The notes: generated by a model from the sequence alone, not told the origin. A DNA stretch of 64,000 nucleotides from an uncultured Lachnospiraceae bacterium (GCA_946624935.1 CAMOSN010000002.1:30786-94785), one strand, 5' to 3'; counted from the stretch's first letter, positions 55,299 to 60,484 are shown. Numbers and translations are program-made.

Positions 55299-56141
55299 AT
55301 GCGCAATCGAAAAAGAAGGATCATCCTTGCAGCAGCATGCATGATCCTTCTGGGAAGCACTGTGCCCACATGGTGCGCTGTATCCGGAACGTTCACTTAT
55401 GGAAGCTTCATCAGGAGCAACTTTCAGGCACCATTTTACTATGACGACGCATATTTCCTGGAGCCATCCACAAAGTACGCCGATTCCCTGGCAACCATGT
55501 CCATGTGTCTGGCCCTGTCCGCTTTTGCAAGCAAGGGGACGAACGACTACACACAAAAATCCGAGAACCTGCAGGCACTGCTTGCGCAGTGTGGCTTTGC
55601 TCTGGTAACCAAAGTGGCACCGACAATTCCCTCCGACACGTTCGGCTTTGATCGTTACGGAATCTGTATGTATCTGCCCTGTGTGCTGTATGACGGCAAG
55701 ACTTCCTTTCTGCAAAAACAGAAGAAGATGCTGGAATAATATGACCTGCTGGAAGGAACGGCAGACTATCAGCCGGAAGCATTCCAGATGAAAAAGCTCT
55801 CCGTTATGGATATTTGGAAGGGAAGCGTAGTCATCGATGATCACGATGACGCATGGACCCAGGAAACGTTCCTGGAAAGTCTGATCAGTGAGATCTCCGA
55901 GGCAGTCGGCAGCAGGGAAGAATATGTTCGGACATATCAGGAGAGTATCCGACAGATCTGCCATATCCTGCTCGGGCACAGTAATGCTGCCGTCGCTATG
56001 AATGCATTCGCATCACGCATTCAGGATCAGGCAGCCACGCTGGCAGGTTATGCCGCTTCCAGCGCGATTCTGGGGACAAAGCCTCTGGCCGATTTCCTGG
56101 AAAAGGACCTGATTCTGACAGCAGGTTTTACTGCAGACTGA
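55299..56141 (+). pseudogene. secreted lipase/esterase-like protein interrupted by one in-frame TAA (55737-55739) and apparently C-terminally short
   Basis: ORFs 55299..55739 and 55788..56141 are in the same frame with a single TAA between them. N-terminal signal peptide. YYDDAYFLEPSTKYADSLATMSMCLALSAF resembles the N-terminus of clostridial class-3 lipase-like proteins. LLGHSNAA is a possible nucleophile elbow. Confidence 0.35.
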
Positions 56142-56161: not shown

Positions 56162-57166
56162 TTAAGGGACAAAAAGGAGGTCGTGGTTCACGCTTTTGTA
56201 AAACAGTTCTTTGAATTCTCCTCTGTCCCGGGTCCTCCCCAGGATCCACATGGTCTTTGCAATGACTGCTTCCAGCGTCATATCGTAGGATTCCGGAATA
56301 TGATACTCGTTTTTGACTGCGTGCCCGACCTCGTATACGGACATATCACTGCCTTCGTTCGGGACCTGAGTGGCCATGACGACAGATTTTCCTGCGGACG
56401 TCCACTTACGGATCGCCTCCCGGAAGCTTCCGTCGCCGTAATCCGGAATGCCGCCGACCCCGAAGGATTCGATGATCAGGGCATCGTACCGGTCCATCAG
56501 GGAATCGAGGATATTCCCGTCGCTCCCCGGGATCATCCTGTAAAGGAATACCTTCGAATTGATCTGGTCAGAAAAGCTTACGGGAGCGGTATCCTGACCT
56601 TTGTCGTCAATATAGAAAATGATCCTCCTGTCCTGGATCACAGCGATTGGTGGATAATTGATGCTGGAAAAAGCGTCATAGCTTTTTGTGCGCTCTTTTT
56701 TCGCCCGTGTTCCCGCGATCACCATGCCGCCAAACACAATGCAGACATCATGTGCCCGTTCATCCGACGCAAAGCGGACGCTGTCCAGAAGGTTCGTCCG
56801 GGCGTCCGTGTCCGGAATGTCGATCGGGCGCTGTGCCCCGGTAATCACAATCGGCTTTGCACTGTGCTGTACCAGATACGAGAGGGCTGCTGCCGTATAT
56901 GCCATGGTGTCGGTTCCGTGGCATATCACAAATCCGTCATATTCATCGTAATGCTCCCGGATCAGGTCCGCCAGCATAACCCACTGTTCCCCATGCACAT
57001 TCGTACTGTCCAGGCTGAACGGCTGTATCACATTGATCCTGCAGAATGCCTTTGCCTCCGGAATGTATTCCAGCAGTTCCTCGCCAGGGATCTGTGGAGA
57101 AAGCCCCTTTTCTGTGTGTCGCGAGGCGATCGTCCCACCTGTTGCGATCAGGAGTATTTTCACCAT
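56162..57166 (-). CDS. ansA: L-asparaginase, type I
   Basis: LIATGGTIAS and CHGTDTMAYTAAALS motifs. 334 aa. Confidence 0.9.
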   Translation of the reverse strand: MVKILLIATGGTIASRHTEKGLSPQIPGEELLEYIPEAKAFCRINVIQPFSLDSTNVHGEQWVMLADLIREHYDEYDGFVICHGTDTMAYTAAALSYLVQHSAKPIVITGAQRPIDIPDTDARTNLLDSVRFASDERAHDVCIVFGGMVIAGTRAKKERTKSYDAFSSINYPPIAVIQDRRIIFYIDDKGQDTAPVSFSDQINSKVFLYRMIPGSDGNILDSLMDRYDALIIESFGVGGIPDYGDGSFREAIRKWTSAGKSVVMATQVPNEGSDMSVYEVGHAVKNEYHIPESYDMTLEAVIAKTMWILGRTRDRGEFKELFYKSVNHDLLFVP

Positions 57167-57173
57167 CCGTTCA

Positions 57174-57851
57174 TCACTCCTTCATTGCTCTTTCCCGGCG
57201 CTGATCCAGAATCCACTCTGTAAAGGCTTCAAAGCCTTCCCCGGTCTTAGCGCTCACCGGGAAAATGCGCACATCCGGGTTCAGGCGCACAATCCGCTCT
57301 TTTGCAAGAGCCAGATCGAAATTGAAGTATTCAAGGGTATCGATCTTGTTGATCAGCACGACATCGCTCACCTGAAACATCAGCGGATACTTGAGGGGCT
57401 TGTCGTCCCCCTCGGGAACGCTCAGAATCATCACATTTTTATGCGCTCCTGTATCAAATTCCGCAGGACACACAAGATTGCCGATATTTTCCAAAATCAG
57501 CAGATCCAGATCCTTCGTATCATAGTGCAGCAGCGTACGGCTTACCATATCAGCGTCGATGTGGCACAGTCCGCCGTTGTGAATCTGCAAAGCCTCCACG
57601 CCGGTGCGGTCCGCAACCTTCTGGGCATCCTCTGTGGACTCGATGTCCACATCCATCACGCCGATCCGCATCCGGTCTTTCAAATGATTGATCAGAGTGA
57701 CCAGTGTTGTAGTCTTGCCGCTGCCCGGACTGGACATGAAGTTCAGAAACAGTGTCCCCTGCAGGTTCATCTGCTCCCGAATGGCCTGCGCCGTCTGCTC
57801 GTTGTCCGCGAGTACGCTCTGTTCGATTTTGATTACTTTCACTTCGCCCAT
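57174..57851 (-). CDS. hypB: HypB-family G3E metallochaperone GTPase (paralog 1)
   Basis: P-loop SSPGSGKTT, GGLCHIDA, ENIGNLVCPAEFD, SVPEGDDKPLKYP and INKID. ATG 57851 (GGAG RBS) gives 225 aa. Confidence 0.85.
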   Translation of the reverse strand: MGEVKVIKIEQSVLADNEQTAQAIREQMNLQGTLFLNFMSSPGSGKTTTLVTLINHLKDRMRIGVMDVDIESTEDAQKVADRTGVEALQIHNGGLCHIDADMVSRTLLHYDTKDLDLLILENIGNLVCPAEFDTGAHKNVMILSVPEGDDKPLKYPLMFQVSDVVLINKIDTLEYFNFDLALAKERIVRLNPDVRIFPVSAKTGEGFEAFTEWILDQRRERAMKE

Positions 57852-57941
57852 AAAATCGCTCCGTTTCTGTCCATCCACGCTTTTCGCATGTTCCGTTTTT
57901 GTCCGGTCTGCTTCCCCTGTCCCTGCAGTCAGCCGACAGTC

Positions 57942-58619
57942 TCAATTAGAACCTTTATTCCAGGTCCGCACCCGGTCCGCCAGGTACACGGCCAGTTCCT
58001 CCACGCCTTCCCCGGTCTTCGCGCTGATGTAAAAGATCCGGACGTCAGGGTTTCGCATCCGCGCCACCGTTTCCACCCGGTCCCGGTCAAAATCAAACAC
58101 CGGCAGCGTATCGATTTTATTAATGACCAGGACATCGCACTGCTCGTACATGAGCGGGTACTTGACCGGCTTGTCGTCCCCCTCCGGGACACTCAGGATC
58201 GTCATGTTGATGGCCGCGCCGGTGTCAAACTCCGCGGGACACACCAGGTTGCCGATGTTTTCCAGCACGATCAGGTCGTAATGCGCCTCCCCGAGCGAAC
58301 GAATGCCCTGCCGTGTCATGTCCGCGTCAAGATGGCACATACCTCCGGTGTGCAGCTGCACGGAAGGGATTCCTGCCTGCAGCATGGTCTTCGCGTCCAC
58401 ATCGGAATCAATGTCCGCCTCCATCACCGCCCATCTCATCTGTGCACTCAGATAAGGAGCGAGGGCAAGCAGCGTCGACGTCTTCCCACTGCCCGGACCG
58501 GACATCAGGTTGAGCAGACAGGTCCCGCCCTTCTTCAGTTCCTCCCGCAGTACCTGTGCATCCTGGTCATTATCCTCCAGAATGGATTCCTTCAATTCAA
58601 TGATTCTGACCGTATCCAA
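57942..58619 (-). CDS. hypB: HypB-family G3E metallochaperone GTPase (paralog 2)
   Basis: P-loop SGPGSGKTS, GGMCHLDA, ENIGNLVCPAEFD, SVPEGDDKPVKYP and INKID. 225 aa. Confidence 0.85.
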   Translation of the reverse strand: MDTVRIIELKESILEDNDQDAQVLREELKKGGTCLLNLMSGPGSGKTSTLLALAPYLSAQMRWAVMEADIDSDVDAKTMLQAGIPSVQLHTGGMCHLDADMTRQGIRSLGEAHYDLIVLENIGNLVCPAEFDTGAAINMTILSVPEGDDKPVKYPLMYEQCDVLVINKIDTLPVFDFDRDRVETVARMRNPDVRIFYISAKTGEGVEELAVYLADRVRTWNKGSN

Positions 58620-58647
58620 TCCGCTCTCCTCCTTTTTCTTCTCTGCT

Positions 58648-58896
58648 TTATTCTAATGCGTCCGTATCATCTTCCGTCTCGACGAGGATATTCTTCACCA
58701 CAAATTCCCTGCCACTGATGATCTTTTTATTCCTGCTTTTACACTTCGGGCATCTGCCCTCAAAACGCATCACGTTGTAAAGCGTCTGACAGTCGGTGCA
58801 AAGCCCTTCATCTGATACATACTGTTCTCCCTGCCCGTAAGCTGGCATTCTGGCCAGGCCGGTAGCTCCCCTTTTTTGAAATGAGACCATGTTCAT
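58648..58896 (-). CDS. HypA-like Zn-ribbon protein lacking the N-terminal Ni-binding (MHE) domain
   Basis: CTDCQTLYNVMRFEGRCPKCKSRNKKIISGREFVVKNILVE matches the C-terminal Zn-ribbon half of HypA. It is only 82 aa, against about 113 aa for canonical HypA as I recall it. Confidence 0.5.
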   Translation of the reverse strand: MNMVSFQKRGATGLARMPAYGQGEQYVSDEGLCTDCQTLYNVMRFEGRCPKCKSRNKKIISGREFVVKNILVETEDDTDALE

Positions 58897-58912
58897 TTAA
58901 CCCGGCCTTCTC

Positions 58913-60097
58913 TCAGATCCCGGCCAGTGCACTCTCCAGATCCTCCAAAAGGTACTTTGTTCCTTCCAGGCCGCAGTGAATACGGATAATCTGCGGTTCT
59001 CCGCCGAGGATCTTACATTCTTCTGATGACATCTTCATATGCGGCATAAAGACAAGACTCTCGAACCCGCCCCAGGACACACCGATTTTGAATATCCGAA
59101 GCGCTTCTGTCACTTTTACAGCCTGCTCTACGGTTCCGTCGATTTCAAAGCTCAATAACCCGGTATTTCCTTCCTGCTGTCTGCACATGAGCTCATACTG
59201 CGGATGGCAGGTAAGACCAGGATAATTCACTTTTTTTACCCTCTCATGTTTCTTCAGGAACTGCGCGACCGCCAGAGCTGTCTCCTGATGCTGCCTCACC
59301 CGGACCGGAAGTGTCCGCAATCCGCGTATCATCAGCCATGCTTCCATCGGTCCGACGATGCCGCCAAGCAATTCGCGCATCTGCAAAAGCTTATCAAAAA
59401 GCGTCCCGTCTCTGACTGCCAGTACGCCACCTATGACATCGCTGTGCCCGCCAATATACTTTGACGTTGTATGCATGACAATATCTGCCCCCATCTGAAG
59501 AGGCTTCTGAAAAATCGGTGTACAGAAGGTATTATCAATATAAACCAGCGCGCCATGGCGGTGCGCCAGAGCACTTACCTCCCGGATATCCTGCAGGGAA
59601 AACACAATGGAGGACGGGCTTTCCAGAATCACCAGATCGGTCTTGTCCGTGACTGCTTCTTCAAATTCCTGAAGATCCCTTCCGTCCACAAAGGTTGTCT
59701 TTACATGCATATGCTCCGCGCAGTATCCTGTCAGAAATGTACGCAGTGGTCCATATGCATTCCGTATACATACGACATGACTTTCATCCTTCACACAGGC
59801 AAGTACGGCTGTTGAAGCTGCCGCCATACCCGACGCAAATGCAGCCGCACCCGTTCCCTGCTCGAGTGCCGCAACCTTTTCCTCAAAAATACGGACGGTC
59901 GGATTTTGTACACGTCCGTAACAGTACTGATGCATATCATGCGGATCCGCACTGTAAAATGAATCCAGCGTCTCAAAAACATGCAGAGAATTCATGAATA
60001 CCGGCGGGACAACGGCATTATAGTAGTGTTCATAATCCTCCGCATGATGTGTAGTGATAAGTGAGTCATCCCTGAGATAGCTTTTCTGATCAGTCAT
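58913..60097 (-). CDS. Cys/Met-metabolism PLP-dependent enzyme (cystathionine gamma-synthase/beta-lyase/methionine gamma-lyase family)
   Basis: YGRVQNPT, DNTFCTP and the PLP-lysine motif HTTSKYIGGHSDVIGG. ATG 60097 is preferred over 60145. Confidence 0.85.
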   Translation of the reverse strand: MTDQKSYLRDDSLITTHHAEDYEHYYNAVVPPVFMNSLHVFETLDSFYSADPHDMHQYCYGRVQNPTVRIFEEKVAALEQGTGAAAFASGMAAASTAVLACVKDESHVVCIRNAYGPLRTFLTGYCAEHMHVKTTFVDGRDLQEFEEAVTDKTDLVILESPSSIVFSLQDIREVSALAHRHGALVYIDNTFCTPIFQKPLQMGADIVMHTTSKYIGGHSDVIGGVLAVRDGTLFDKLLQMRELLGGIVGPMEAWLMIRGLRTLPVRVRQHQETALAVAQFLKKHERVKKVNYPGLTCHPQYELMCRQQEGNTGLLSFEIDGTVEQAVKVTEALRIFKIGVSWGGFESLVFMPHMKMSSEECKILGGEPQIIRIHCGLEGTKYLLEDLESALAGI

Positions 60098-60311
60098 AGT
60101 CTTTCCTGTTCGTAATAATCTTTTCCAACTTTTACAGCATTCCAACTTTTTTCAACGGGTAGATGAAAAATCATCGTGGACAAGGTACCTCTACTCCGTA
60201 TATAAAAACAGAAAACAGAACAACATTCCGGGACAAAATCCCGCAATGATCACATAAATATTATATATAAAAAATCTTTAAATTCTATAATCGGAGTACA
60301 ACGTTTACATA

Positions 60312-60348
60312 CCATGCCGGTCTGCACATGACCGGCATGGATTTTTTT
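60312..60348 (+). terminator. strong intrinsic-terminator-like hairpin on the plus strand with no upstream plus-strand gene
   Basis: Perfect 11-bp stem ccatgccggtc / gaccggcatgg, a 7-nt loop, then aTTTTTTT. Confidence 0.45.
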
Positions 60349-60484
60349 CATTCTATCATCGACCAGATCGTCTGGCAATCACCACCAGCTCTCCCCCAGA
60401 CAGATCCCATTTTACAATATCTGCCGAAGAATAATAAAATACCGGGATGCCTGGTGAAAGGCTGTCCCGGTCATGCATCCGCAA

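Follow-up and report, generated by a model that had tools for sequence, protein, structure and literature searches.

A truncated hypA and a conserved tandem HypB pair in a probable gene mosaic of an uncultured Lachnospiraceae bacterium

The subject of this study is a cluster of five genes at positions 56,162–60,097 of a 64,000-nucleotide (nt) DNA stretch, hereafter the window, from an uncultured Lachnospiraceae bacterium (GCA_946624935.1 CAMOSN010000002.1:30786-94785). The window lies on contig C2 of a 2.7-Mb metagenome-assembled genome (MAG), which consists of 217 contigs and is 86% complete. This genome (G000) was compared with 40 relatives, giving 41 genomes in all. Genes related to the nickel chaperone genes hypA and hypB lie here between the gene of a pyridoxal phosphate (PLP)-dependent enzyme and that of a type I L-asparaginase (AnsA) (Table 1). 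The initial annotation had described a tight five-gene operon. The five closely packed minus-strand genes were borne out by the open reading frames (ORFs), the Pfam and NCBIfam scans and the sequence itself, from which gaps of 16, 28, 90 and 7 nt were read in the order from the PLP gene to ansA. In a consensus scan, no terminator-like site was found on the minus strand in any of the gaps, and a transcript of all five might start at a promoter-like site that lies upstream of the PLP gene. It is therefore plausible that the genes are co-transcribed. The five-gene string was found only in the window and in six further metagenome assemblies, seven in all, and their DNA identity of about 99% indicates that they belong to the same species.

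Table 1. Features of the five-gene cluster and its upstream region (positions in the window).
Feature	Position	Strand	Remarks
Promoter-like site TTGCCA-17-TAGAAT with TG extension, 10/12	60350..60378	-	Consensus scan; upstream of the PLP gene
PLP-dependent enzyme, Cys/Met-metabolism (trans-sulfuration) family	58913..60097	-	394 amino acids (aa); PF01053
Junction sequence (16-nt gap and first ~26 codons of the 82-aa ORF)	58819..58912	-	
82-aa ORF, hypA 3' remnant	58648..58896	-	Homologous part ~58660-58818
HypB2, upstream member of the tandem pair, G3E GTPase	57942..58619	-	TIGR00073
HypB1, downstream member of the tandem pair	57174..57851	-	225 aa; TIGR00073
Type I L-asparaginase (AnsA)	56162..57166	-	334 aa; TIGR00519

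The 82-aa ORF covers only positions 70–110 of the 112-position HypA profile and its score against TIGR00100 is 30.5 bits, the cut-off being 88.1. Its best homologues outside its own species are HypA proteins of 121–134 aa that start with MHEIGVLYK, and the identity to these full-length proteins is 75–83% over the C-terminal ~54 residues only (80–83% for the nearest ones, and 81% over 53 residues). The homologous part corresponds to HypA residues 68–120. Both CxxC knuckles and the last beta-strand are kept. Residues 1–67 are missing, and the Met-His-Glu nickel site is gone with the rest of the N-terminal domain. In the DNA alignment, the homology to full-length hypA runs from near position 58818 through to the stop codon. 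For the junction sequence, homology could be detected neither to hypA nor to the corresponding junction of another lineage with a hypA stump (L158), and the L158 junction likewise gave none to hypA; the local-alignment scores were no higher than those of shuffled sequence. The missing 5' half of hypA was not found in the assembly, where only two other full-length paralogues were matched at 23–26% identity. By this homology, the 82-aa ORF is to be regarded as the 3' remnant of a full-length hypA and as a rearrangement scar. The initial annotation had taken it for a HypA-like Zn ribbon. The relation to HypA holds, but the ORF is a truncated hypA and no independent small protein.

An alternative is that the ORF encodes a functional 'mini-HypA', made of the Zn ribbon and the terminal strand and selected as a partner or regulator of the HypB pair. 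The ORF is intact and preceded by GAGAAGG, a plausible ribosome-binding site, and all four cysteines (C33, C36, C49 and C52) are present in the window. Moreover, a 62-aa stump of the same part of hypA stands before the orthologous HypB pair in L158. Synonymous divergence (dS) is saturated in most pairs of diverged orthologues, so that only the non-synonymous divergence (dN) and codon counts are usable. In the 30-codon core (FEGxCPKC...VET) of the two stumps, 15 codons differ synonymously only and 3 non-synonymously, and the dN of 0.07 reflects no acceleration relative to full-length hypA lineages. The population data speak against a selected function. C52Y, which removes a zinc ligand invariant in all aligned HypA homologues, occurs in 3 of the 7 sequences from assemblies of the species. 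Among these seven, the two hypB genes have 8 synonymous and 2 non-synonymous polymorphic codons, and the remnant, with the C52 change included, has 2 and 3. Non-synonymous polymorphic codons number 3 of 83 in the remnant versus 2 of 452 in the two hypB genes, an approximately 8-fold density. In addition, both first-knuckle cysteines are gone from the L158 stump, three lineages with the HypB pair (L165, L167 and G016) carry no remnant at all, and the nickel site is absent. A functional mini-HypA is therefore unlikely. The stump is probably non-functional, and the truncation may be fairly recent, with decay not yet set in. It possibly coincided with the arrival of the PLP gene.

HypB1 and HypB2 gave TIGR00073 scores of 241.5 and 214.7 bits, respectively, about two-fold above the cut-off of 121.2. 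They are 53% identical to each other. Both contain the motifs GSGKT, GG[ML]CH[LI]DA, ENIGNLVCPAEFD and NKID, in columns that are invariant across 14 HypB sequences. The P-loop, the Cys-His...Cys metal site of the G-domain and the NKxD motif are thus intact in both, and the metal-site residues align with C106, H107 and C142 of Helicobacter pylori HypB (4LPS). Over its whole length, HypB1 can be aligned with two solved HypB structures, 4LPS and 2HF8. Its start is an ATG behind an ACGGAG ribosome-binding site, and its nearest named homologues are from Oscillospiraceae MAGs. The N-termini, MDTVRIIEL in HypB2 and MGEVKVIKI in HypB1, carry hydrophobic residues of the HypA-binding type, as judged by sequence alone. 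In A. fulgidus and E. coli, N-terminal hydrophobic residues of HypB (Tyr4 and Leu6 in AfHypB) bind HypA (PMC3287977).

The same tandem order was found in the window and in four other lineages, with five different upstream neighbours. The pair of G016 (73% and 64% identical to HypB2 and HypB1) follows its own promoter region, that of L158 (73% and 66%) an XRE regulator gene, that of L165/L166 (82% and 81%) a flavin reductase gene, and that of L167/L168 (82% and 79%) an acetolactate decarboxylase gene. In the window, the PLP gene and the hypA stump stand upstream. Three of the five lineages carry no hypA stump, namely G016, L165 and L167, and the last two are the closest relatives of the window's pair. 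The downstream neighbours also vary among the lineages. Therefore, the HypB pair relocates as a module, and what adjoins it varies. In the maximum-likelihood tree, the clades of the upstream (up) and downstream (dn) HypBs are each starred, with a support of 99/98 for the up clade. The single HypB of the IsrA-hypA-hypB operons described below is the sister of the up clade with a support of 90/92, just under the starring threshold.

The truncated hypA and the loss of the client gene from the locus could suggest that the whole hyp segment is decaying debris in which both hypB genes are non-functional. However, neither gene is shortened, each retains all catalytic and metal-binding motifs, and both score far above the TIGR00073 cut-off. 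The dN/dS of hypB1 against G016 is 0.16, the polymorphic codons given above are mostly synonymous, and orthologous pairs have been kept in at least five diverged lineages. Debris is thus hardly credible. HypB2 and HypB1 are instead intact and selectively maintained paralogues, most likely acting in trans as GTP-dependent metal (presumably nickel) chaperones.

The PLP enzyme matches PF01053 with 388.7 bits and contains the PLP-lysine motif TSKYIGGHSD; its start is that of the gene calls in the six other assemblies. It lies below every NCBIfam equivalog cut-off (best, NF041088 with 371 bits versus 629), and no specific activity is assignable. No orthologue above 37% identity was found among the 40 relatives. 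The nearest homologues are 67–73% identical and lie on Hungatella/Parablautia-like contigs, where their neighbours are GntR, transporter or other genes. The G+C content of the PLP gene region (58913-60145) is 0.45–0.50, compared with 0.53–0.57 in the hypB genes. The low G+C content and the lack of an orthologue are consistent with horizontal acquisition, and the gene looks like a species-specific acquisition. The spacer upstream of it (60146-60484; 340–390 nt) is AT-rich and contains a plus-strand terminator-like hairpin at 60312-60340.

AnsA scored 295.4 bits against TIGR00519 (cut-off 260.5), matches both asparaginase domains, PF00710 and PF17763, and contains the catalytic threonine motifs ATGGTIAS and HGTDTM. 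Its orthologues are 87% identical in G004 and 64–69% identical in G005, G012 and G013, and no HypB or PLP gene stands beside them. In G004, the homology with the window begins exactly at the ansA start codon, after the end of an ATP-binding cassette (ABC) transporter gene. On the other side of the window's ansA, at 55299-56141, two small plus-strand ORFs are leftovers of a 744-aa Lipase_3-like gene, which is intact in the assembly L039 (L039:10757-12991). The window is short of about 890 nt and about 490 nt relative to L039, and the same two ORFs occur at the equivalent position in four more assemblies (L169–L172).

The initial annotation had offered two explanations for the cluster: chaperones serving a distant target with a fortuitous linkage, or G3E GTPases working in a metal or sulfur context linked to Cys/Met and Asn turnover. 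DNA and tblastn searches of the 40 relatives gave no second example of the order PLP-hypA'-hypB-hypB-ansA, so that synteny is absent and the order is confined to one species. The association of PLP, AnsA and HypB genes was repeated in none of the three PLP, four AnsA and ten or more HypB orthologue contexts. The second explanation would have the GTPases recruited to a metal or sulfur task with the PLP enzyme and the asparaginase, in a functional operon of all five genes; it receives no support from these contexts. It could draw on the very tight spacing without terminators, on the stability of the arrangement in the seven assemblies, and on an orphan full-length hypA on contig C8 of the same genome (L064:7516-12136), 460 nt downstream of a metQ-metN-metI-homocysteine S-methyltransferase cluster. 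In G016 (L076:576-5331), however, the same flanking genes enclose the C8-type hypA (87% identity) on the opposite strand, a single-gene inversion. The adjacency of the C8 hypA and the met genes is thus not a transcriptional unit, and a link of this HypA to methionine metabolism was rejected. Besides, none of the 40 relatives has an orthologue of the PLP gene, the AnsA orthologues stand in other contexts, and the hypA piece is a deletion scar. Neither the PLP trans-sulfuration family nor the asparaginase family is known to depend on nickel. Such a recruitment within a functional five-gene operon is accordingly very unlikely. The first explanation gained support, because the order occurs in one species only, the neighbours of each component differ in relatives, and the hypA piece is a scar.

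A search for targets was extended to the whole genome. The initial statement that no hydrogenase, urease or carbon monoxide dehydrogenase (CODH) gene occurs in the 64-kb window was correct, as the only matches to the anaerobic CODH CooS lie on contigs C152 and C26. Family searches of the 86%-complete assembly revealed no [NiFe] large subunit, urease alpha subunit or HypD. Of the combined finding named in advance as refuting the initial reading, the missing synteny in relatives was observed, and a conventional [NiFe]-hydrogenase or urease elsewhere in the genome was not found. Among the other nickel-related families proposed for the search, cooS and nik-like genes were present and LarA-N gave a weak match only. 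CbiM and NiCoT searches were both negative. The nik-like importer consists of nikB/nikC/nikA-like ABC genes, the NikB-like protein scoring 379.5 bits against NF045470 (cut-off 350). A third HypB and a full-length HypA are encoded on contig C24, and the second full-length HypA is that of contig C8. The genome is therefore not devoid of nickel biology. The CooS match on C152 is a fragment at the end of the contig, behind a gene of a CooC/MinD-like ATPase. On C26 (L007:1435-2127), a stand-alone ORF of about 230 aa matches only the C-terminal third of CooS (positions 405–621), and an ORF of this kind recurs in three genomes of the genus (G000 C26, G001:C85 and G016:C156).

A different type of client was indicated by the full-length homologues of the hypA remnant. 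In four independent contexts (L037/L038, L159/L160, L161/L162 and L163), a gene for an IsrA-type protein of 894–909 aa is immediately followed by hypA, and hypA by one hypB. In two of these contexts, an HTH_30 regulator and a ferredoxin-like gene (about 325 aa) also lie upstream. The upstream protein (P0022 type) consists of an unannotated N-domain of about 300 aa and of Fer4, Fer4_20 and Pyr_redox_2 domains. IsrA is a putative isoprene reductase of 901 aa from Acetobacterium wieringae (Kronen et al. 2023, mSystems, PMC10134865). Its first ~270 aa are unannotated and hold a Cys6 'cluster V'; the protein also has two pairs of [4Fe-4S] clusters and sites for FAD and NAD(P)H, and the N-domain recurs at less than 26% identity in a ferredoxin paralogue (PMC10134865). 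The family of these ~900-aa enzymes is widespread in anaerobes, and its FAD/NAD(P)H module is GltD/NfnB-like. The Cys6 site has been compared with double-cubane clusters (PMC10134865). HypA is encoded within five genes of 73% of 988 IsrA homologues and HypB of 56%, in organisms without [NiFe]-hydrogenase or hypCDEF, and IsrA was proposed to be the nickel client (PMC10134865). In the present work, the IsrA-type class was set by the published description of IsrA (VUZ27132.1).

An exhaustive profile search gave 1,572 clusters with the Cys6 N-domain, in forms of about 900 aa or about 350–490 aa. Six cysteines (C164, C166, C185, C238, C240 and C245) are invariant in an alignment of 19 sequences, and the motifs CxCR and CNCxxxxC are present in the IsrA-type copies of G000 itself. 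The neighbourhoods of 80 Cys6-domain loci from named genomes of Clostridia, Collinsella, Treponema and others were then counted. Within 7 kb, HypA is encoded at 61 loci, HypB at 41 and either of them at 67, and the usual orders are hypB-isrA-hypA or isrA-hypA-hypB. These counts match the published 73% and 56%. The same tendency appeared in the distribution over the 41 genomes. HypB is present in G000, G003, G004, G009, G014, G016, G023, G024, G027, G032 and G038, and the Cys6 domain in G000, G003, G004, G014, G016, G024, G027, G038 and G039. HypB thus occurs in 8 of the 9 Cys6-positive genomes and in 3 of the 32 Cys6-negative ones, counts which are descriptive and carry no statistical test, as the genomes are kin. 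The three with HypB and no Cys6 domain are G023 and G032, which have [NiFe]-large-subunit-like matches, and G009, which is 74% complete. No [NiFe] large subunit was found in 18 relatives of the genus or in the window's genome. CooS occurs in 9 of these 18 relatives and in the window's genome and does not track with HypB.

The genome that holds the window has genes for three Cys6-domain proteins. The first is an IsrA-type protein of 938 aa on contig C111 (L059:2009-6052). Its gene is followed by one resembling a 2-hydroxyglutaryl-CoA dehydratase D-component or double-cubane reductase (NF040772, below cut-off). The second IsrA-type gene runs over a contig break, with one part on C101 (L061:244-5449) and the other on C8 (L060:3-1553); the two parts share an identical overlap of 17 residues. 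Its product is 60–71% identical to a Hyp-flanked copy in G004, and the gene divergently adjoins the nikB/nikC/nikA-like genes. The third, on C24 (L005:316-4927), is a protein of 491 aa in which a twin-arginine (Tat) signal (RRDFLKG) is combined with the Cys6 N-domain and a 2x[4Fe-4S] domain; its gene is followed by hypA-hypB-tatA-tatC. This cluster is 87–94% conserved in G016 and suggests an exported Fe-S protein matured by Hyp proteins. Searches of solved structures and of the ESM Atlas with the C24 Cys6-ferredoxin gave only generic ferredoxin matches and unnamed clusters. The P0022-type IsrA, the expected companion of the window's hypA, is missing from the assembly, because it is only 39–50% identical to the two full-length IsrA-type proteins of G000.

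The Cys6 IsrA-type family, which the initial annotation had left out of account, is thus the likely target of the HypB proteins. Another candidate is the CooS of contig C152, which the HypB pair might mature together with HypA in trans. No classical nickel enzyme other than CooS was found in the genome, and G000, G009 and G016 possess both HypB and CooS. Nevertheless, the CooS fragment has a CooC/MinD-like ATPase gene of its own in front of it, and the two distributions diverge in both directions: G003, G004, G014, G024 and G038 have HypB without CooS, and G001, G002, G006, G008, G012, G013 and G017 have CooS without HypB. HypA and HypB genes adjoin Cys6-domain genes, not cooS. The maturation of CooS by the pair is therefore quite unlikely. 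A bolder proposal starts from the Cys6 enzymes. HypB2 and HypB1 might form a dedicated heterodimeric G3E metallochaperone, a relocatable two-gene module without a HypA in cis or an adjacent client, which matures in trans the Cys6 (IsrA-type) enzymes of anaerobes from the gut and rumen. This idea is tentative and more doubtful than probable. If it were true, the heterodimeric module would be part of a new insertion pathway for nickel or another metal outside hydrogenase, urease and CODH.

Taken together, the locus is likely an evolutionary mosaic that carries an orphaned hyp segment and no dedicated pathway; the chaperones would most likely work in trans, their linkage to the Cys/Met and Asn enzymes being fortuitous. 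The ancestral unit may have been an operon composed of the gene of an IsrA-type Cys6 Fe-S flavoprotein, hypA and hypB. Along the lineage of the species, the site would have lost the enzyme gene together with the initial ~67 codons of hypA. The PLP gene, for which the 40 relatives have no orthologue, now adjoins the hypA stump, and ansA the downstream end. HypB2 and HypB1 would work in trans with the two full-length HypA proteins encoded elsewhere. Their presumed clients are the three Cys6 proteins, namely those of C111, of C101/C8 beside the nik-like importer, and the Tat-signal form on C24.

Several points weigh against the mosaic as described. The stump cores of the window and L158 differ by saturated synonymous and very low non-synonymous divergence; therefore, the truncation would be recent or the stump would have been under selection for some time. 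A full-length hypA in front of a tandem HypB pair was seen in no lineage found. That IsrA-type enzymes depend on nickel has been published as a hypothesis and not as a demonstrated fact, and P0022 is tied to IsrA by the published description. Since the assembly is 86% complete, unassembled DNA could hold a hydrogenase or the IsrA partner that is missing. Finally, the close packing, the gaps free of terminators and the ansA ribosome-binding site, which sits within the last codons of hypB1, suggest present-day co-transcription, and some regulatory coupling of the five genes is therefore possible.

The isr operon of A. wieringae ISORED-2 and the 'clade 9' IsrA homologues (PMC10134865) are the nearest known system. 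There, hypA and hypB stand beside the gene of a Cys6 oxidoreductase of about 900 aa in organisms without [NiFe]-hydrogenase or hypCDEF, and a shorter paralogue combines the Cys6 and ferredoxin domains (PMC10134865). The closest full-length relatives of the window's hypA remnant share this layout exactly. In the window, by contrast, neither the oxidoreductase gene nor the 5' half of hypA is present, two tandem hypB genes replace the single one, and the flanks are the PLP and asparaginase genes. In the canonical system, HypA and HypB deliver nickel to [NiFe]-hydrogenase, as in E. coli, H. pylori and A. fulgidus (PMC3287977). The window's HypBs share with it the CH...C site, the P-loop, NKxD, the N-terminal hydrophobic residues and an end-to-end alignment with 4LPS. 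However, they do not have the N-terminal CxxCGC high-affinity site, the local hypA has no nickel site, and no large subunit, HypD or urease was found in the G000 assembly. The stump also resembles gene remnants at operon boundaries, being an in-frame 3' fragment behind a foreign gene, with a start codon supplied by the junction and with relaxed constraint in the population (C52Y). Unlike such remnants, it is unusually well preserved against diverged full-length homologues, and a similar stump exists in L158.

The association of Hyp proteins with Cys6 (IsrA) enzymes has already been published (PMC10134865). The present analysis adds an orphaned and truncated instance of the Hyp-IsrA system, a conserved and relocatable tandem HypB pair, and independent support for the Hyp-Cys6 association, including the neighbouring nik-like importer. 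The result removes the false lead of nickel chaperones serving amino-acid catabolism and illustrates that a deletion scar can pass for a novel small protein. Many hydrogenase-free anaerobes keep hypA and hypB beside IsrA-type Cys6 flavoproteins. The co-distribution in 41 genomes, the 80 named loci and the adjacent nik-like importer lend independent support to this pattern, and the tandem HypB pair, detached from any client gene, is a convenient handle on the Hyp-Cys6 pathway.

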